Below are positions 4,254-55,025 of a stretch of DNA of 64,000 nt, one piece after another. The position numbers and the translations under genes were made by a program. Position 1 is the first letter of the stretch, and each line of letters starts with the position of its first letter. This DNA comes from Escherichia coli (GTDB taxonomy: Bacteria > Pseudomonadota > Gammaproteobacteria > Enterobacterales > Enterobacteriaceae): assembly GCF_003018255.1 (NCBI RefSeq), contig NZ_CP027440.1; one strand, written 5' to 3'. The notes under the pieces are model-generated. The model was not told where the DNA came from, did no database searches, and saw nothing but the letters and a program-made list of their open reading frames with translations.

Positions 4254-4281
4254 AAAAGGTCCGATGGGCATCGGACCTTTT
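4254..4281. terminator. bidirectional intrinsic terminator between ygbN (+) and the decarboxylase operon (-)
   Basis: Perfect inverted repeat AAAAGGTCCGATG/CATCGGACCTTTT, A-run before and T-run after, directly flanked by two convergent stop codons. Confidence 0.7.
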
Positions 4282-4283
4282 AT

Positions 4284-4520
4284 TTAGCGCTTACCTTCCG
4301 CCAGCAGCGGCGGGATGCTCGGCACCATCGGCGCGTCATCAATATCTTTCTGCGTCATGCGGAACGCTTCGGGATAATGTTCGCGGCTGGTGCGGCGTAG
4401 CGGTTCGGTATCGCGCCAGGTATAGAGGCAATGCTGGCACTGGTAGACCATCCAGACATCTTTTACCGGCGATTTCGCCATCACTTCAATCTGTTCATCG
4501 GCACAACGTGGACAAATCAT
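4284..4520 (-). CDS. ecdD: small zinc-ribbon subunit of a UbiD-type hydroxyarylic acid decarboxylase (EcdD/KpdD/BsdD-like)
   Basis: 78-aa ORF with CPRC...CQHC; immediately downstream of and co-oriented with the UbiD-like gene. Confidence 0.75.
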   Translation of the reverse strand: MICPRCADEQIEVMAKSPVKDVWMVYQCQHCLYTWRDTEPLRRTSREHYPEAFRMTQKDIDDAPMVPSIPPLLAEGKR

Positions 4521-4530
4521 CTTGTTCTCC

Positions 4531-5958
4531 TTATTGACGTGCGGCCAGCATAGCGGTCAGTTTTTCAGCCCAGGCTTTGGTTTCCGGTAAGTCCACCACC
4601 GGCTGGCTGTAGTGACCACGGTTGTCCGGGGCGACAGGCGTGGTGGCGTCGATAATCAGCTTGTCGGTGATCCCCGCCGGACTTGAGCCAGGGTCGAGTT
4701 CCAGCACGGACATATTCGGCAACTGTACCAAATCCCCTGCCGGGTTCACTTTCGAGGAGAGCGCCCACATCACCTGCGGCAGGTTGAACGGATCAACGTC
4801 TTCATCGACCATAATCACCATCTTCACGTAGCCCAGACCGTGCGGCGTGGTCATCGCACGCAGGCCCACCGCGCGGGCAAAGCCGCCGTAGCGTTTTTTG
4901 GTGGAGATAATCGCCAGCAGGCCGTGGGTGTACATGGCGTTTACCGCCTGCACTTCCGGGAACTCGGCTTTCAGTTGTTGATACAGCGGCACGCAGGTGG
5001 CAGGCCCCATCAGGTAGTCGATTTCGGTCCACGGCATACCAAGATAGAGCGATTCGAAAATCGGTTTGGTACGGTAAGAGACTTTATCGATACGCACCAC
5101 GGTCATGTTACGCCCGCCGGAGTAGTGGCCGGTAAACTCACCGAACGGCCCTTCAATCTCACGTTTACGACTTTCGATAACCCCTTCGAGGATCACTTCC
5201 GAGCCCCACGGCACATCAAAACCGGTCAGCGGGGCGGTGGCGATCGGGTACGGGCTTTCGCGCAGCGCGCCTGCCATTTCGTACTCAGACTGATCGTATT
5301 TCAGCGGCGTGGCCCCCATTAGGGTGATGATCGGATCGTTACCGAGTGTGATGGCAATCGGCAGATCTTCACCGCGCTCTTCTGCTTTATGCAGATGCAG
5401 GGCGATATCGTGCATCGGCACCGGTTGCAGGCCGAGCTTACGCTTGCCCTTCACTTCCATGCGGTAGATGCCGACGTTCTGCTTGCCGAAGTTATCCGGG
5501 TCGAGCGGATCGCGGGAAACCACGCACGCTTTATCGAGATAGAAACCGCCATCACCGTCGTTTAAACGAAACAGCGGCAGAATATTGAACAGGTTGATCT
5601 CGTCGCCATCGACGGTGTTCTGCGCCCAGGCTGGATTGGCGCGGCGCTCCGGGGCAATGGGGAAGTTATCCCAGCGGCGGATAAACTCATCAATCTGTTT
5701 TTTAACCGGGGTGTTTGGCGGCAGGCCGAGGGAAATCGCGTGGTTCTGCCAGGAACCGATGGTGTTCATTGCCACGCGGGCATCGATAAAGCCGCGAATA
5801 TTATCAAACCAAAGCGCGGGCGCGCCGTCGCCGATACGCCCGGTGGCGTTGGCTGCGGCTGCCAGATCCGGTTCCGCGTTCACCTCTTCGCTGATTTTCA
5901 GTAACTGGCCGTGGTCATCAAGCGCCTGTAAAAAGCTGCGTAAATCATCAAATGCCAT
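4531..5958 (-). CDS. ecdC: UbiD-family non-oxidative aromatic acid decarboxylase (EcdC/KpdC-like)
   Basis: 475-aa ORF with UbiD-like N-terminus MAFDDLRSFLQALDDHGQLLKI; start overlaps the upstream stop. Confidence 0.85.
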   Translation of the reverse strand: MAFDDLRSFLQALDDHGQLLKISEEVNAEPDLAAAANATGRIGDGAPALWFDNIRGFIDARVAMNTIGSWQNHAISLGLPPNTPVKKQIDEFIRRWDNFPIAPERRANPAWAQNTVDGDEINLFNILPLFRLNDGDGGFYLDKACVVSRDPLDPDNFGKQNVGIYRMEVKGKRKLGLQPVPMHDIALHLHKAEERGEDLPIAITLGNDPIITLMGATPLKYDQSEYEMAGALRESPYPIATAPLTGFDVPWGSEVILEGVIESRKREIEGPFGEFTGHYSGGRNMTVVRIDKVSYRTKPIFESLYLGMPWTEIDYLMGPATCVPLYQQLKAEFPEVQAVNAMYTHGLLAIISTKKRYGGFARAVGLRAMTTPHGLGYVKMVIMVDEDVDPFNLPQVMWALSSKVNPAGDLVQLPNMSVLELDPGSSPAGITDKLIIDATTPVAPDNRGHYSQPVVDLPETKAWAEKLTAMLAARQ

Positions 5959-6551
5959 TATTCATTCTCCTGAGAAAAATTCCGGGCCTGCGGCAATCCT
6001 TGCCAGCGCCTGGCGTGAGGATGTTCGAGGCCAAATTGATCCAGCACGCGGGCTACCACGTGGTGGACAATGTCATCTACCGTTTCGGGATGGTTATAAA
6101 AGGCAGGCATCGGCGGCACCATCGCCACGCCCATGCGCGAAAGTGCGAGCATATTTTCGAGATGGATTGTGCTAAGCGGCATTTCACGCGGCACCAGCAC
6201 CAGTTTGCGGCCTTCTTTGAGCACGACGTCCGCCGCGCGCCCCACCAGGCCATCGGCGTAACCAGCGCGGATACCGGCGAGCGTTTTCATACTGCATGGA
6301 ATAACGATCATGCCGTCGGTACGAAAGGAGCCGGAAGAGATAGTCGCCGCCTGATCCGCCGGGTTATGGCTGAAGTCTGCGAGGGCGGCAACATCGCGAG
6401 CGCTGTAAGGCGTTTCCAGTTCAATCGTGATTTTCGCCCACTTCGACATCACTAGATGAGTCTCGACATTCGGCATCTCCCGCAGCGCTTGCAGTAATGC
6501 CACACCAAGAGGCGCACCGGTAGCCCCTGTCATCCCGACGATCAGTTTCAT
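5958..6551 (-). CDS. ecdB: UbiX/Pad1-family flavin prenyltransferase (EcdB/KpdB-like)
   Basis: 197-aa ORF with MKLIVGMTGATGA flavoprotein motif; first gene of the three-gene minus-strand operon. Confidence 0.85.
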   Translation of the reverse strand: MKLIVGMTGATGAPLGVALLQALREMPNVETHLVMSKWAKITIELETPYSARDVAALADFSHNPADQAATISSGSFRTDGMIVIPCSMKTLAGIRAGYADGLVGRAADVVLKEGRKLVLVPREMPLSTIHLENMLALSRMGVAMVPPMPAFYNHPETVDDIVHHVVARVLDQFGLEHPHARRWQGLPQARNFSQENE

Positions 6552-6568
6552 TGCTTACTCTCTTAATT

Positions 6569-6582
6569 GTTCGTATACGAAC
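6569..6582. promoter_or_regulatory. 14-bp perfect palindrome GTTCGTATACGAAC in the divergent promoter region (candidate MarR-type operator)
   Basis: Perfect dyad about 18 nt upstream of the ecdB start codon, between the divergent MarR gene and the decarboxylase operon. Confidence 0.35.
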
Positions 6583-6697
6583 GTTATTATTAACATACTC
6601 CTTCATTTCCACAGCGGCAAGGATTGAAAAGTAACAACATCTTCTTCGTCACTGAAAAACCGCTATGATAGCGACAGAGAATTAGCCCGGAGTTTAC

Positions 6698-7105
6698 ATG
6701 GCGTTACGAAATAAAGCGTTCCATCAGTTACGACAGCTTTTTCAGCAGCATACAGCTCGCTGGCAGCACGAGTTACCTGACCTGACCAAACCACAGTACG
6801 CGGTGATGCGCGCCATTGCTGATAAGCCTGGTATCGAACAGGTGGCACTGATAGAAGCAGCAGTCAGCACCAAAGCAACGCTGGCAGAAATGTTGGCAAG
6901 AATGGAAAATCGTGGCTTAGTCAGACGTGAACATGACGCCGCTGACAAGCGGCGACGCTTTGTCTGGCTGACTGCCGAAGGAGAAAAGGTACTTGCTGCG
7001 GCGATCCCCATTGGTGACAGTGTGGATGAGGAATTTTTGGGGCGTTTGAGTGCAGAAGAGCAGGAGCTGTTTATGCAGTTGGTGCGCAAGATGATGAGCA
7101 AATAG
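6698..7105 (+). CDS. MarR/SlyA-family transcriptional regulator
   Basis: 135-aa ORF with winged-helix MarR pattern, divergent from the decarboxylase operon. Confidence 0.8.
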   Translation: MALRNKAFHQLRQLFQQHTARWQHELPDLTKPQYAVMRAIADKPGIEQVALIEAAVSTKATLAEMLARMENRGLVRREHDAADKRRRFVWLTAEGEKVLAAAIPIGDSVDEEFLGRLSAEEQELFMQLVRKMMSK

Positions 7106-7182
7106 GATGCTGATTGCCGGGTAGGACGCTGACGAGTCTTATCCAGGCGACAAAACACACCGACTTCCCAAACAAAAGAAAA

Positions 7183-18304: not shown

Positions 18305-19188
18305 GGGAGTTCTACCGCAGGGGCGGGGAATTCTAAGTGATATCCATCATCGCATCCAGTGCGCCCGGTTTATCCCCGCTGACGCGGGGAACACACATGA
18401 ATGTCGGTTCAGACCGTGTTTTTACCCGGTTTATCCCCGCTGGCGCGGGGAACACGAGGCTGAACAGGGAGGGGGCTACCGGCACAGCGGTTTATCCCCG
18501 CTGGCGCGGGGAACACTTGCCAACCGCCAAAGACTGGAAAACCAATCTCGGTTTATCCCCGCTGGCGCGGGGAACACTTAAACTTGCCGCCGGTATGGGG
18601 GGAACGGGCCGGTTTATCCCCGCTGGCGCGGGGAACTCGTTTCGCGTCGATCGCCTTTTGCGCAATCGCGCCGGTTTATCCCCGCTGGCGCGGGGAACTC
18701 TTTCTTTTTCCATTTAAGTTATTCTAATACCCCGGTTTATCCCCGCTGGCGCGGGGAACTCGATCATGCCTTACTAAAAGGTCCGCTGACGGGCGGTTTA
18801 TCCCCGCTGGCGCGGGGAACTCATCATGACAAAAAGTTACGCTCATCTATTCAACGGTTTATCCCCGCTGGCGCGGGGAACTCTCCATATGTTGCCCCGC
18901 TCGGGACAACACCCCCGGTTTATCCCCGCTGGCGCGGGGAACTCTTAGCGCCGACAAAAGAAGTTGCGGATAACAGCGGTTTATCCCCGCTGGCGCGGGG
19001 AACTCGCCCGTTCCCAGGGAGTGCGGCTCCACCCCCGCGGTTTATCCCCGCTGACGCGGGGAACTCTTCAGTTTCACACTCGGTAATGCCGTTATTTACG
19101 GTTTATCCCCGCTGGCGCGGGGAACTCCTCGGGGCCAGCCTCCCCCATTAACCCGGCACCGGTTTATCCCCGCTGGCGCGGGGAACTC
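18305..19188 (-). CRISPR. type I-E CRISPR array: 14 intact or near-intact 29-nt repeats plus one degenerate terminal repeat (18305-18333), 14 spacers
   Basis: Plus-strand repeat CGGTTTATCCCCGCTGGCGCGGGGAACTC at a 61-nt period (reverse complement of the canonical E. coli repeat GAGTTCCCCGCGCCAGCGGGGATAAACCG). Spacers are 32 nt, one is 33 nt. The four leader-distal repeats end in CAC rather than CTC. Confidence 0.98.
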
Positions 19189-44132: not shown

Positions 44133-44271
44133 ACATACCTGAATGGTTATCCCCGCTGACGCGGGGAACATAAGTTCGACAACTTAAAAAATGATAACAA
44201 GTCCGGTTTATCCCCGCTGATGCAGGGAACATAATAAAAACTTTAACTAGTTCGGTTTATCCCTGTTTTTA
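44133..44271 (-). CRISPR. degenerate CRISPR remnant: three decayed repeats with AT-rich spacer-length intervals
   Basis: GGTTATCCCCGCTGACGCGGGGAACA, CGGTTTATCCCCGCTGATGCAGGGAACAT and CGGTTTATCCCTGTTTTTACAAGGAATAT at about 60-nt spacing, just downstream of ygcE. Confidence 0.8.
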
Positions 44272-44735: not shown

Positions 44736-45069
44736 TGGTTTATCCCCGCAGGCGCGGGGAACTCATAGAGAAAAGAAACGGCAGCTTTGCCACTTCCGGT
44801 TTATCCCCGCTGGCGCGGGGAACTCCGCGTTTCTAATCTCACCGCCACGGCGATCAACGGTTTATCCCCGCTGGCGCGGGGAACTCACCCCTTTAACGTC
44901 ACCAGACCGCTAACGACGCGGTTTATCCCCGCTGGCGCGGGGAACTCGCGTAACCATTTTGATGGCGCTACCGAAATGGCGGTTTATCCCCGCTGGCGCG
45001 GGGAACTCGATCAACGGCCTGGCGGCTGCCTCTGAAATCTCGGTTTATCCCCGCTGGCGCGGGGAACTC
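44736..45069 (-). CRISPR. orphan type I-E CRISPR array: 6 repeats, 5 spacers of 32 nt
   Basis: Same repeat as the cas-adjacent array at a 61-nt period; the leader-distal repeat is a variant (TGGTTTATCCCCGCAGGCGCGGGGAACTC). Confidence 0.97.
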
Positions 45070-50342: not shown

Positions 50343-50554
50343 TTAGGTTGAAAAGACGATGGAATAACCAGGACGGGAAAGCAGTATACCCGAACATGAC
50401 CTGTGCCACAAACTTTCATTATCCCTCCTCTTCGCCAGCGCACTATTGAAATCAGGAGTGAGAAAATAGCCCCTTTGGGGTAAATGTTTTTGACGCAAAT
50501 CAAGCGCTTGTCATTTAAAAAATGACACAAATCGCGCTTGACCACGTAATTCCC

Positions 50555-51346
50555 TTAGAGATCAATTTCCTGCCGTTTTACCTGTTGCCAGACTTCTTCC
50601 ATTGTTTCGAGGTCAACACCTGTCATTTCCAGTCCACGCGCGGCAACAATACGCTCCACTTCGCGAAAACGACGCTCGAATTTTTCGTTCGCTTTTTGCA
50701 ATGCGATTTCCGCTTTTGTCCCTAAATGACGAGCCAGATTGACTGTGGCAAACAGCAGGTCACCCATTTCCTCCTCCAGTTTAGCCTGGTCGACAACAAC
50801 CTGCCGCGCTTCGTACATCACCTCATCGATCTCTTCGTAGACTTTATCGACTACCGGGCCAAGCGTCGTCCAGTCGAAGCCAACGTTGGCGCAACGTTTC
50901 TGGATTTTTTGTGCGCGCATTAAGGCGGGTAAACTACTAGGGATATCGTCCAGCGCCGAATGCTGCGCTTTTTGCGCGCGCTCTTCAGTTTTGATTTGCT
51001 CCCAACGAGCAAGAACTTCGCGGCTGTTTCCGGCAGAACCGTCAGCAAAAACATGTGGATGACGGCGTTCTAATTTATCGCTAATCGCAGCGCAAATATC
51101 ATTAAAATCAAAGCGCCCTTCTTCCTGGGCCATTTGTGCGTAAAACACCACCTGGAACAGCAGATCGCCCAGTTCACCGCGCAGATCGTCAAAATCTTCA
51201 CGGGCGATGGCGTCCAGCACCTCGTAGGTTTCTTCAAGGGTGTAAGGCGCAATGGTGGCAAATGTCTGCTCTTTATCCCACGGGCAGCCGTTTTCCGGGT
51301 CACGCAGGCGCTGCATGATGGTGAGCAAACGGTCGATTTGATTCAT
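50555..51346 (-). CDS. mazG: nucleoside triphosphate pyrophosphohydrolase MazG
   Basis: 263-aa ORF with N-terminus MNQIDRLLTIMQRLRDPENGCPWD. Confidence 0.95.
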   Translation of the reverse strand: MNQIDRLLTIMQRLRDPENGCPWDKEQTFATIAPYTLEETYEVLDAIAREDFDDLRGELGDLLFQVVFYAQMAQEEGRFDFNDICAAISDKLERRHPHVFADGSAGNSREVLARWEQIKTEERAQKAQHSALDDIPSSLPALMRAQKIQKRCANVGFDWTTLGPVVDKVYEEIDEVMYEARQVVVDQAKLEEEMGDLLFATVNLARHLGTKAEIALQKANEKFERRFREVERIVAARGLEMTGVDLETMEEVWQQVKRQEIDL

Positions 51347-51404
51347 TAGAATGTCCTGAAAATTGCGGGTCCGTCAGGTGTAATACCTTCGAGTAAAAGA
51401 TATC

Positions 51405-51432
51405 GCTGGATACGGCTGACGCCATATCCAGC
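51405..51432 (-). terminator. relA intrinsic terminator (candidate)
   Basis: Stem GCTGGATA/TATCCAGC with a 12-nt loop, followed on the minus strand by a U-rich stretch, about 10 nt after the relA stop. Confidence 0.45.
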
Positions 51433-51441
51433 TATGTAAGA

Positions 51442-53676
51442 CTAACTCCCGTGCAACCGACGCGCGTCGATAACATCCGGCACCTGGTTGAGTTTACCCA
51501 GCACGCGCCCCAGCACTTGCAGGTTGTAAATCTCAATGGTCATGTCGATGGTCGCCAGTTGCTGTTTGGTGTCGCTACGGCTGGCAACGCCAAGTACGTT
51601 CACCTTCTCGTTGGCGAGAATGGTCGTGATATCACGTAACAACCCACTACGATCATTAGCCACCACGCGGACCACCAGCGAATATCCGGCGGAGTAGCTC
51701 TCGCCCCATACCGCGTCAACAATGCGTTCTGGCGCATGGGAGCGCAGTTCCGCCAATTGTTCGCAATCGGCGCGGTGTACTGAAATACCGCGCCCCTGGG
51801 TAATGAAGCCGACAATCTCATCTCCAGGAATCGGCTGGCAGCAGCGCGCGATGTGGTGCATCAGGTTACCGACCCCTTCTACCACCACACGACCGTTATC
51901 TTTACTGCGGTTTTGCGGCGTGTAGCTTTTTTGCTGAAGCTGTTTCAGCGCGGCGGCGTCCTGCTCTTCGGCACTCGGCTTATTAAATTGCGATTGCAGG
52001 AAGTTCACCATCTGATTGAGACGGATATCCCCGCCACCAATCGCCGCCAGCAACTCGTCGACATCATTGAAGTTGTAACGCGGCAGCAGATGTTTTTCTG
52101 CTTCTTTCAGGCTGATCCCCAGATGTTCCAGCTCGTCGTCAAGAATTTGCCGCCCAGCCAGAATGTTTTTGTCACGGTCCTGTTTACGGAACCAGGCGTG
52201 AATTTTCGAACGCCCACGGCTGGTTGTGACGTAACCGAGGTTTGGGTTTAACCAGTCACGGCTGGGGTTCGGCTGTTTCTGGGTGATAATTTCAATCTGG
52301 TCGCCCATCTGCAGCTGGTAGGTGAACGGCACAATGCGCCCGCCAATTTTTGCCCCGATGCAGCGGTGTCCGACATCACTGTGGATGTGGTAAGCGAAGT
52401 CCAGCGGCGTTGATCCCGCAGGCAAATCAACGACATCACCTTTCGGCGTAAAGACGTACACTCGGTCGTCAAAGACCTGACTACGTACTTCGTCGAGCAT
52501 TTCGCCGGAATCAGCCATCTCTTCCTGCCACGCAATCAGTTTACGCAGCCAGGCAATCCGGTCTTCATGTCCCGAACGTGCGCCGCCAGCAGCCGCGCCC
52601 TCTTTATATTTCCAGTGCGCAGCAACACCCAACTCTGCATCTTCATGCATCTGTTTGGTGCGGATTTGGATCTCAACGGTTTTGCCACCCGGCCCCAGAA
52701 CCACGGTATGAATGGACTGATAACCGTTTGGTTTCGGGTTAGCGACGTAATCGTCAAACTCATCCGGCAGGTGGCGATAGTGAGTGTGCACTATCCCCAG
52801 TGCGGCATAACAATCCTGTAAACGCTCGGCGACAATACGTACCGCACGCACATCAAACAGCTCATCGAAGGCGAGGTTCTTTTTCTGCATTTTGCGCCAG
52901 ATACTGTAGATGTGTTTCGGACGGCCATACACTTCAGCTTTAACGCCTTCAGCTTTCATCTCAGCGCGCAGATGGCCGACAAACTCTTCGATATAGTGTT
53001 CGCGGTCGAGACGGCGTTCATGCAGCAGTTTTGCGATGCGTTTGTATTCGGTCGGGTGGAGATAACGGAAGCAGTAATCTTCCAGCTCCCATTTCAGTTG
53101 CCCAATCCCAAGACGGTTCGCCAACGGCGCGTAGATATTGGTGCACTCTTTTGCCGCCAGTACGCGTTCATCTTCCGGCGCATCTTTTACTTCGCGCAGG
53201 TGAGCAATACGCTCCGCCAGTTTGATGACCACGCAGCGAAAATCATCGACCATCGCCAATAACATCCGGCGAACGTTATCGACCTGTTCGGAGGAAACAG
53301 AATCAGTGTGCGTCGCTTTCAGCTGGCGGATCGCCGCCATATCACGCACGCCGTGAATAAGGTTAACGACCGACTTACCGACGCTCTCACGCAGCACATC
53401 TTCGCTGACTACGTTGGCATCAGCCAGAGGGAACAGCAGCGCCGCCCGCAGCGTGTCAATGTCCATACTTAATGTCGAGAGGATCTCCACCATCTCAACA
53501 CCACGCCACAATAACAGACTGGCATCCGGATGCCCCTGCGTCTGTTGCAGACAATACGCCCAGGTTTCGGCTAAGCACTCACACGACTTCTGGCTGGTAA
53601 TACCCAGACTTGCGATCCATTTTTCCGGATCAAATTCACCAGCCTTATTGATATGTGCACTTCTTACCGCAACCAT
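51442..53676 (-). CDS. relA: GTP pyrophosphokinase, (p)ppGpp synthetase I
   Basis: 744-aa ORF with N-terminus MVAVRSAHINKAGEFDPEKWIASLGI. Confidence 0.98.
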   Translation of the reverse strand: MVAVRSAHINKAGEFDPEKWIASLGITSQKSCECLAETWAYCLQQTQGHPDASLLLWRGVEMVEILSTLSMDIDTLRAALLFPLADANVVSEDVLRESVGKSVVNLIHGVRDMAAIRQLKATHTDSVSSEQVDNVRRMLLAMVDDFRCVVIKLAERIAHLREVKDAPEDERVLAAKECTNIYAPLANRLGIGQLKWELEDYCFRYLHPTEYKRIAKLLHERRLDREHYIEEFVGHLRAEMKAEGVKAEVYGRPKHIYSIWRKMQKKNLAFDELFDVRAVRIVAERLQDCYAALGIVHTHYRHLPDEFDDYVANPKPNGYQSIHTVVLGPGGKTVEIQIRTKQMHEDAELGVAAHWKYKEGAAAGGARSGHEDRIAWLRKLIAWQEEMADSGEMLDEVRSQVFDDRVYVFTPKGDVVDLPAGSTPLDFAYHIHSDVGHRCIGAKIGGRIVPFTYQLQMGDQIEIITQKQPNPSRDWLNPNLGYVTTSRGRSKIHAWFRKQDRDKNILAGRQILDDELEHLGISLKEAEKHLLPRYNFNDVDELLAAIGGGDIRLNQMVNFLQSQFNKPSAEEQDAAALKQLQQKSYTPQNRSKDNGRVVVEGVGNLMHHIARCCQPIPGDEIVGFITQGRGISVHRADCEQLAELRSHAPERIVDAVWGESYSAGYSLVVRVVANDRSGLLRDITTILANEKVNVLGVASRSDTKQQLATIDMTIEIYNLQVLGRVLGKLNQVPDVIDARRLHGS

Positions 53677-53723
53677 CGTCCTCTCCTTTAGGGACCAGAC
53701 CTGCCGAAATCGGCAAATCGTAA

Positions 53724-55025
53724 CTATTTAACGCGCGAGAAAAGTACCATCGATTCCAGATGTCCCGTGTGTGGGAACATATCCAGCATCGCCAGTCGCG
53801 CAATGGTATATCCTGCTTTTAATAACGCTTCGCTATCCCGAGCCAGCGTTGCAGGGTTACAGGATACATAAACTATACGAATAGGTTCCAGTTTTATAAT
53901 TTGCTGCATAACACCTGCGGCACCTGCTCGCGCCGGGTCCAGCAACACTTTATCGAAGCCGTTTTTCGCCCACGGCTGCTTTGTGACATCTTCTTCAAGA
54001 TTTTCGTGATAAAACGTCACATTCTGTAAGCCATTAAGACGCGCATTCTGCTGGCCTTTTTCCACCAGCGCCGGAACACCTTCTACACCCACCACACTGG
54101 CAGCTTGTGTCGCCAATGGCAGTGTAAAGTTGCCCATACCGCAGAACAGATCCAGTACGCAATCTTCAGGTTCCACATCCAGCCATTCCAACGCACGCGC
54201 TACCATTTTCTGGTTCACACCCGCATTGACCTGAATAAAATCGCGCGGGCTAAAAGTTAAGCGCAACCCATTTGAGTCATACCAGGGCATCTCACCAGAG
54301 ACGGTTTCGAGTATCTCACTATCGGGGGCGAGATACAGATCCAGGCCTTCAGAATGCGAAAAGCATTCCAGTTTTTCGCGATCTGCCGAACTTAGCGGTG
54401 CGGTATGGCGCAAAATCATTAGCGTGCCGCTGGTTGCCTGTACCAGTTCAACATGACCAAGATGGCGCATAGCTTGTAAGCTGCCCAGGCATGCCCTGAC
54501 TTTGGGCAGCAATGCTTCAAGTTGGGGCACTAAAATGGGGCATTGTTTAACGTCGACAATGTCACTGGAGCCCGCTTTGCGAAACCCCATCTGAAGTTGC
54601 TGTGTTTTCGGTAAGTAGTTCAGACTTAAACGCGCGCGACGGCGATAGCCCCAGGGAACATCGGCGATCACTTCAGAGACTTCGTGTTTCATTAATCGGG
54701 CGAGTGCCGCACTTTTGCTTCGCTGCTGTAAATCCACACTGGCGTGTTGTTGCTGACAGCCGCCGCATACGCCAAAATGAGGACAGCGTGGCGTTTCGCG
54801 TTCCGGGCTATCGCTTAATCGGCGTACGACTTTAGCGCGGGCATACTGTTTTTTATCTTCAGTAACAGTAACTTCCGCGTTTTCCTGCGGCAATAATCCG
54901 GGGATAAATAATGTTTTGCCGTTATGTCGCGCCACACCCTGACCAAAAGAGTCGAGGTCGTTGACTGAAACGGTTATGATCTGACGCGTCGTCGTGCGTC
55001 GTTTTGCAGAGTAGAATTGCGCCAT
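53724..55025 (-). CDS. rlmD: 23S rRNA (uracil1939-C5)-methyltransferase
   Basis: 433-aa ORF with TRAM domain and Fe-S Cys motif [11 protein letters not shown]. Confidence 0.95.

Follow-up and report, generated by a model that had tools for sequence, protein, structure and literature searches.

The results of this analysis indicate that the spacer between relA and mazG in the window, i.e., the whole 64-kb stretch of E. coli chromosomal DNA considered here, most probably represents an ancestral-type empty site, one of two common alleles segregating in E. coli; we put the probability of this reading at about 0.85. The spacer comprises 95 bp (51347–51441, minus strand), as defined by the ORF listing, alignment, and a genome search, and contains neither mazE nor mazF. 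Because about one in five sequenced E. coli have this junction, and because it has already been described, it is an ordinary and frequent allele, though the minority state.

Both flanking genes are intact. The relA gene (51442–53676, minus strand) encodes a GTP diphosphokinase of 744 aa and ends with a TAG stop codon. The product was identified with NF008124 (NCBIfam), which aligned over residues 1–744 of 744 (1678 bits), and the RelA protein (WP_000226815.1) is common to all nine strains compared, mazEF-positive, mazEF-free, and the nearest relative. The mazG gene (50555–51346, minus strand) encodes a nucleoside triphosphate pyrophosphohydrolase of 263 aa, identified end to end by TIGR00444 (NCBIfam; 414 bits). 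The neighbours of the pair, rlmD, barA, pyrG, and eno, are E. coli-like. The preliminary description had the two genes full length and adjacent at 95 bp, with no MazE or MazF in the interval, and both statements hold. Searches with tblastn (E value ≤ 1e-3) employing MazE and MazF from a mazEF-positive strain gave no match across the 64-kb window and, specifically, no ORF for a MazF/PemK-family toxin or a MazE antitoxin in the 95 bp between relA and mazG. The palindromic mazEF promoter/operator is also absent after the relA stop; apart from the mazG leader common to the alleles, nothing in the spacer resembles the 77-bp promoter region.

Alignment of the window with two mazEF-positive strains defines the extent of each allele. 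The sequences are identical up to the relA stop and again from 42 bp before the mazG ATG; between these boundaries the window has 53 bp (51389–51441, minus strand) at the position where the mazEF-positive strains have 690 bp. The arrangement cited earlier as the reference, with mazE and mazF between relA and mazG, is indeed seen in mazEF-positive genomes, where mazE (249 bp) and mazF (336 bp) lie within a 731-bp spacer. The 690-bp cassette includes the 77-bp promoter/operator, mazE, mazF, and 29 bp of the 70-bp mazF-mazG spacer, and is without a terminator of its own. These sizes agree with the 77-bp and 70-bp spacers tabulated for the mazEF locus, and the transferable toxin-antitoxin unit has been described as promoter/operator plus ORFs, without a terminator (PMC5120126). 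With blastn-short, the 53 bp of the window had no similarity to any part of the cassette, and the whole spacer had none outside the shared 29-nt leader; the junction alignment that had been recommended thus reveals no cassette remnant in the window. The 42-bp mazG leader (51347–51388, minus strand) is common to the empty, mazEF-positive, and E. albertii alleles by alignment, and carries the mazG Shine-Dalgarno sequence AGGA. A predicted 5-bp stem, CCUGA/UCAGG (51355–51378, minus strand), overlaps this Shine-Dalgarno sequence; since it is kept in all three types of allele, it might modulate mazG translation whatever the allele.

The relA-mazG region was found in 5425 of the 5426 complete E. coli genomes, and the empty junction, counted when a 125-bp junction query was covered to 80% or more, in 1006 of the 5426 (18.5%). 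Genomes with the empty junction include Nissle 1917, one UPEC strain, and poultry, pig, bat, and wastewater isolates. Identity to the junction is 96.8–100% in the sampled empty-junction genomes and reaches 100% in, e.g., strains 104 and CT282. DNA of mazEF is present in 4419 complete E. coli genomes, invariably on the chromosome and, with few exceptions, at one place; as megablast is blind to distant mazEF paralogs (chpBIK, pemIK), the absence of mazEF refers here to the classic locus only. The sum of 1006 and 4419 is exactly the 5425 genomes which bear the locus, and therefore the classic mazEF is absent from the empty-junction genomes, not moved. Mention of this junction is also found in the literature. 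The relA-mazG pair has been called an ‘undisturbed bicistronic operon’ in many strains without mazEF (Fraikin et al. 2020; PMC7167474), UTI89 is among the mazEF-free strains (PMC7167474), and CFT073 is without the classic mazF (PMC7232551); the mazEF-free junction was thus already known. The same source (PMC7167474) cites Fiedoruk 2015 and Ramisetty & Santhosh 2016 on the subject and portrays the relA-mazG site as plastic, with parDE there in Salmonella, while Norton & Mulvey 2012 contains no discussion of mazEF. The unusual character that the preliminary description implied for the junction is not borne out by these data. Its converse, a junction shared by most E. coli and so unremarkable, is correct as to wide sharing and incorrect as to a majority.

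The distribution of the spacer outside E. coli bears on polarity. GTDB species representatives were scanned with MazG, and the best 80 loci were considered; the K-12-type E. coli representative and E. fergusonii are not among them. Neither MazE nor MazF was found between relA and mazG in these best 80 loci from other Enterobacterales species (Citrobacter, Salmonella, Klebsiella, Enterobacter, Erwinia, Pectobacterium, and others). In most of them the spacer is 50–150 bp long, with REP-like palindromes in Citrobacter and Salmonella. Two genomes titled E. coli, yet serving as separate GTDB species representatives, strains SCPM-O-B-8794 (L005) and E69 (L006), carry the same 95-bp spacer, and their 53-bp segment is nearly identical to that of the window, with pairing-preserving substitutions in the hairpin described below. 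Their divergence from the window in relA and mazG is 4–9%: L006 differs at 24/600 nt of the relA 3’ end and 53/792 nt of mazG, and L005 at 54/600 and 68/792 nt, respectively. The empty allele would be the older form of the site because L005 and L006 share the spacer, the Citrobacter palindromes align with it, and no mazEF occurs among the best 80 loci.

Three other loci of the scan have an unusual relA-mazG interval. Buttiauxella agrestis ATCC 33320 (L040, 841–2428) has a 1.8-kb spacer with a gene for Hcp/TssD of type VI secretion (TIGR03344; E value 3e-56) and, after it, an ORF of 261 aa and a hydrophobic one of 109 aa without a family match; these could constitute an Hcp-effector-immunity module. 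The 0.95-kb spacer of Superficieibacter electus (L017, 2066–2404) contains a 112-aa hydrophobic ORF weakly similar to the one in B. agrestis (29% identity; E value 0.003). The cargo in these two genera indicates that the site collects differing toxin-type cargo across genera. In Klebsiella spallanzanii (L032), unlike the other loci, the RelA C-terminus was not detected within 2.5 kb upstream of mazG, and a larger insertion or rearrangement could be present at the site.

A locus from which mazEF has truly been lost has a different appearance. E. albertii is usually placed outside E. coli. In its type strain, NBRC 107761 (L004, 2237–2500), the relA-mazG spacer has 261 bp and is without mazE or mazF. 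At its start, 30 nt match the mazEF operator (87%) and are placed at the offset from the relA stop that the operator has in the mazEF-positive allele. The spacer also has 15 nt of the mazF coding sequence (AGGAATTACAACTCA) without a mismatch, linked to the cassette tail through a short AACTCA repeat, and it closes with a 58-nt, 95% match that covers the 29-nt tail specific to the cassette. Two REP-like elements separate the cassette remnants, where mazE and mazF would be. By its sequence this spacer is a decayed mazEF locus, i.e., a true loss scar, and E. albertii or an ancestor would thus once have carried mazEF at the relA-mazG site. No such scar of operator, mazF fragment, and tail is present in the spacer of the window. 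It follows from the E. albertii remnants that the mazEF insertion is either old or has been transferred between Escherichia species, and in that case any one E. coli lineage could owe its empty allele to re-import and not to vertical inheritance.

The 53-bp segment contains a terminator-like hairpin (51405–51432, minus strand) which begins 9 nt past the relA stop, has a 12-bp stem and a GUCA 4-nt loop, and is followed by GAUAUCUUUU. Seven of the 12 pairs are G-C, and the tail reads GATATCTTTT. The folded spacer RNA has an energy of −33.3 kcal/mol (z = −4.76), and none of 200 shuffled sequences was as stable. The presence of a terminator-like hairpin in the spacer, as given in the preliminary description, is confirmed by this stem and fold, and the arrangement is that of an intrinsic terminator, a G+C-rich stem-loop directly before a U-tract. 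It is, however, predicted to be weak as a terminator, because the run of U is only 4 and is able to pair into a second stem. The latter, of 9 bp (51382–51404, minus strand), overlaps the U-tract of the first hairpin; it is a prediction only, with one pair broken in one sequence. All 12 pairs of the first stem are retained in 7/7 spacer haplotypes. Five substitutions fall in this stem, one compensatory (U-A to C-G) and four one-sided, all of them preserving pairing, and by this pattern the hairpin of the empty allele is judged to be under structural constraint. A scan of 50400–53900 with Rfam, evaluated by E-value, gave no family.

The hairpin probably derives from a REP element, as judged by comparison with other genera. 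It aligns, position for position, with the REP-like palindromes GTAGGCCGGATAAGGCG...ATCCGGC at the same site in Citrobacter. Its head is degenerate (ATAG-CTGGATATGGCG) versus the REP consensus GTAG-GCC(G/T)GAT...CG, a ~35-nt imperfect palindrome. A search with the canonical REP head (17-mer, ≤3 mismatches) does not recover the hairpin; three canonical heads are present elsewhere in the window. No further copies of the 28-nt hairpin occur in the 64-kb window at ≤3 mismatches. With its head unmatched within 3 mismatches and one copy in the window, the hairpin does not have a canonical REP head, and the label of REP-derived applies to it by position only.

Comparison of whole regions shows how the locus has been exchanged. 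The window has the gene order ltnD…rpoS, cys genes, type I-E CRISPR-Cas, eno, pyrG, mazG, relA, rlmD, barA, gudD, and is collinear with strain JNE23-011 (NZ_AP045067.1), its nearest relative. The two are 98.8–98.9% identical overall and 100% identical at ~45–53.9 kb; long blocks of 100% identity alternate with blocks at 91–98%, among them blocks of 1–3 kb at 94–98%, e.g., at ~5, 31–34, 36, 39, 41–44, 54, and 58–59 kb. This mosaic is consistent with frequent short recombination imports. The nearest matches of the window include APEC O78:H4 and similar strains. These matches, together with the type I-E CRISPR-Cas system and an island next to rpoS, suggest that the lineage belongs to neither phylogroup A nor B1.

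The CRISPR-Cas system is complete (cas3, casA-E, cas1, cas2), with the cas genes at ~19.3–27.9 kb. One array (18367–19186; 14 repeats) adjoins iap, and another (44737–45067; 6 repeats) lies between ygcE and queE, with degenerate repeats at 44144–44230. Both were defined by a pattern search, as Tandem Repeats Finder picked them up only partly. The arrays are unlike those of JNE23-011 in length and spacer content, and 1-kb identity bins there fall to 85% and 91.5%. The small island adjoining rpoS (~4280–7110) encodes subunits B, C, and D of a non-oxidative hydroxyarylic acid decarboxylase and a MarR-family regulator, according to the annotation of the collinear JNE23-011. We take it to be part of the known variable mutS-rpoS region, and to be absent from K-12.

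The two alleles of the relA-mazG site occur on closely similar local backgrounds. The bat isolate A3 (empty) and APEC O2:K1:H4 (mazEF-positive) differ at 0/792 nt of mazG and 11/2235 nt of relA, and the relA of the window differs from that of the same APEC strain at 1 nt of 2235. Homologous recombination through relA and mazG is thus the simplest explanation. The relA-mazG type of the window is present, at ≥99% identity, in about 78 complete genomes. Within its mazG a patch (50744–51128, minus strand) has ~30 SNPs in 385 bp (~8%) and is unlike every other E. coli sampled, while the rest of mazG, the spacer, and relA are near-identical to sampled E. coli. The amino acid changes in the patch (window residue, then common residue) are G103S, G106E, R109S, S137R, and V183A. 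As no match was found in E. albertii, L005, or L006, the patch resembles a short tract imported from an Escherichia lineage outside the sample. We considered whether the divergence of mazG marked a breakpoint of recombination at the spacer and rejected this, since mapping of the SNPs places the patch inside mazG, ~220 bp from the spacer; it is therefore a separate event.

These backgrounds give some substance to an alternative which we regard as possible, though decidedly the lesser prospect, namely that mazEF was lost secondarily in the lineage of the window when a mazEF-positive ancestor imported a short empty-allele tract from a mazEF-free donor. Recombination in relA and mazG would then have removed the cassette; the allele would still be of the ancestral type, and the history of the lineage would include the loss of a toxin-antitoxin pair. 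Such an import would account for a relA only 1 nt in 2235 from that of a mazEF-positive APEC strain and ending in the TAG stop typical of mazEF-positive alleles, where Nissle, bat A3, L005, and L006, all with the empty allele, have TAA instead. The mosaic of the window versus its nearest relative, the separate imported patch of mazG, and the presence of empty and mazEF-positive alleles on identical mazG backgrounds point the same way. However, the same data fit equally well if the APEC lineage gained mazEF, a TAG stop is also found in the empty alleles of three further strains (T-HYM1, 980-2, and TUM20902), and post-segregational toxicity is expected to disfavour the replacement of an active toxin-antitoxin pair.

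The preliminary description had offered three alternatives, of which a natural mazEF-free lineage and an ancestral state before insertion both agree with the data. The third, by which mazEF was cleanly deleted in situ from an arrangement like that of K-12, e.g., via short direct repeats, has in its favour a net size difference of 636 bp, close to that of mazE, mazF, and their spacers. It fails because a deletion cannot make 53 bp of new sequence that is unmatched in the cassette and homologous to outgroup spacers; moreover, the real decay product, in E. albertii, looks quite different, and we consider such a deletion extremely improbable. A move of mazEF to another chromosomal or plasmid site in the strain of the window would be compatible with a direct inspection that covered 64 kb of its genome, and is nevertheless very unlikely given the exact sum of the genome counts above and the fact that mazEF is never on a plasmid and is almost always at one place. 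In a spread sample, moreover, 23/23 intact genomes without the contiguous junction annotate mazE and mazF between relA and mazG; the one remaining genome, H30, is rearranged. Finally, the collapse of a mazEF interval during assembly, a concern raised at the outset, is scarcely credible, as 1006 independent finished genomes share the same contiguous junction and its sequence is unique and non-repetitive.

We therefore retain the reading of an ancestral-type empty site and propose the following history. The mazEF module would never have been inserted into the copy of the spacer in the window, and the sequence after the relA stop would be the original spacer. In the other allele, a 690-bp module (77-bp promoter/operator, mazE, mazF, and 29-bp tail) would have replaced 53 bp. 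Strains may since have swapped empty and mazEF alleles by homologous recombination, with relA and mazG as flanking homology. The anatomy of the two alleles, their frequencies, the outgroup homology, and the lack of a cassette remnant are direct results of the analysis; the direction of the original event and this exchange are what we infer from them, as is the co-transcription of relA and mazG that follows.

K-12-type strains co-transcribe mazG from the mazEF promoter, which is autoregulated (PMC5120126). With the empty allele, mazG is without the mazEF promoter in front. It would most likely be transcribed by read-through from relA, as part of a two-gene operon free of autoregulation by MazE/MazF, and translated from its own Shine-Dalgarno sequence in the shared 42-bp leader. 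A crude consensus scan of 50400–53900, from pyrG to rlmD, found no sigma-70-like promoter, which is weak evidence against a promoter for mazG. On the minus strand of the spacer, the hairpin is the one site that resembles a terminator; it may act as a weak terminator or mRNA-end stabiliser, with partial termination or 3’-end stabilisation on the relA-mazG transcript. REP hairpins within ~15 nt of a stop codon reportedly stall terminating ribosomes, and such stalling is said to lower the output of the upstream gene via trans-translation (observations ascribed to Liang, Rudd, and Deutscher, Mol Cell 2015). By analogy, the hairpin of the empty allele, 9 nt past the relA stop, might make the mazEF polymorphism non-neutral in regulation, a suggestion we regard as doubtful. 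If it were true, the levels of RelA and MazG in mazEF-free strains (~18% of E. coli, many ExPEC and Nissle among them) would be set unlike those of K-12-type strains, and the mazEF insertion would have changed how stringent-response genes are expressed.

Whatever its effect on expression, the allele implies that K-12 is not a universal reference, since the classic mazEF is missing from about one in five complete E. coli genomes, probiotic and uropathogenic strains among them. This fraction bears on claims of a core role for mazEF in the stress response or programmed cell death. To what was already known, the present analysis adds the boundaries of the two alleles at base level (53 bp versus 690 bp), the recognition of the empty allele as the probable pre-insertion form, conserved in divergent Escherichia with a structure-preserving hairpin, and the contrasting case of true mazEF decay in E. 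albertii.

Several known systems may be compared with the window. The parDE locus of Salmonella (PMC7167474) and the Hcp island of B. agrestis show the relA-mazG site as a landing place for accessory or toxin-type modules, while the window is without cargo. According to the account of Mine et al. 2009 cited in PMC7167474, the ccdO157 polymorphism at folA-apaH involves a type II toxin-antitoxin system in some E. coli and REP sequences at the same site in others; its locus and toxin-antitoxin family are unlike mazEF, and it is likened to the window by that description only. E. albertii NBRC 107761 is like the window in being without mazE and mazF, and unlike it in keeping remnants of the cassette in its 261-bp spacer. 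The K-12-type arrangement relA-mazE-mazF-mazG has an identical RelA, a near-identical MazG, and the same 42-bp mazG leader as the window. It differs in its 731-bp spacer, with the autoregulated promoter/operator, mazE, mazF, and no hairpin after relA, where the window has 95 bp with the hairpin and no toxin-antitoxin pair. According to the literature, UTI89 (PMC7167474) and CFT073 (PMC7232551) have a mazEF-free junction like that of the window. Nissle 1917, which was compared directly, has the same 95-bp spacer, hairpin, boundaries, and intact flanking genes. From the stop codon through the mazG ATG, the two differ at 5/101 positions, i.e., the relA stop (TAG in the window, TAA in Nissle), a C/T difference within the shared leader, and three bases immediately before the mazG ATG, and the mazG of the window has the internal divergent patch where that of Nissle does not.
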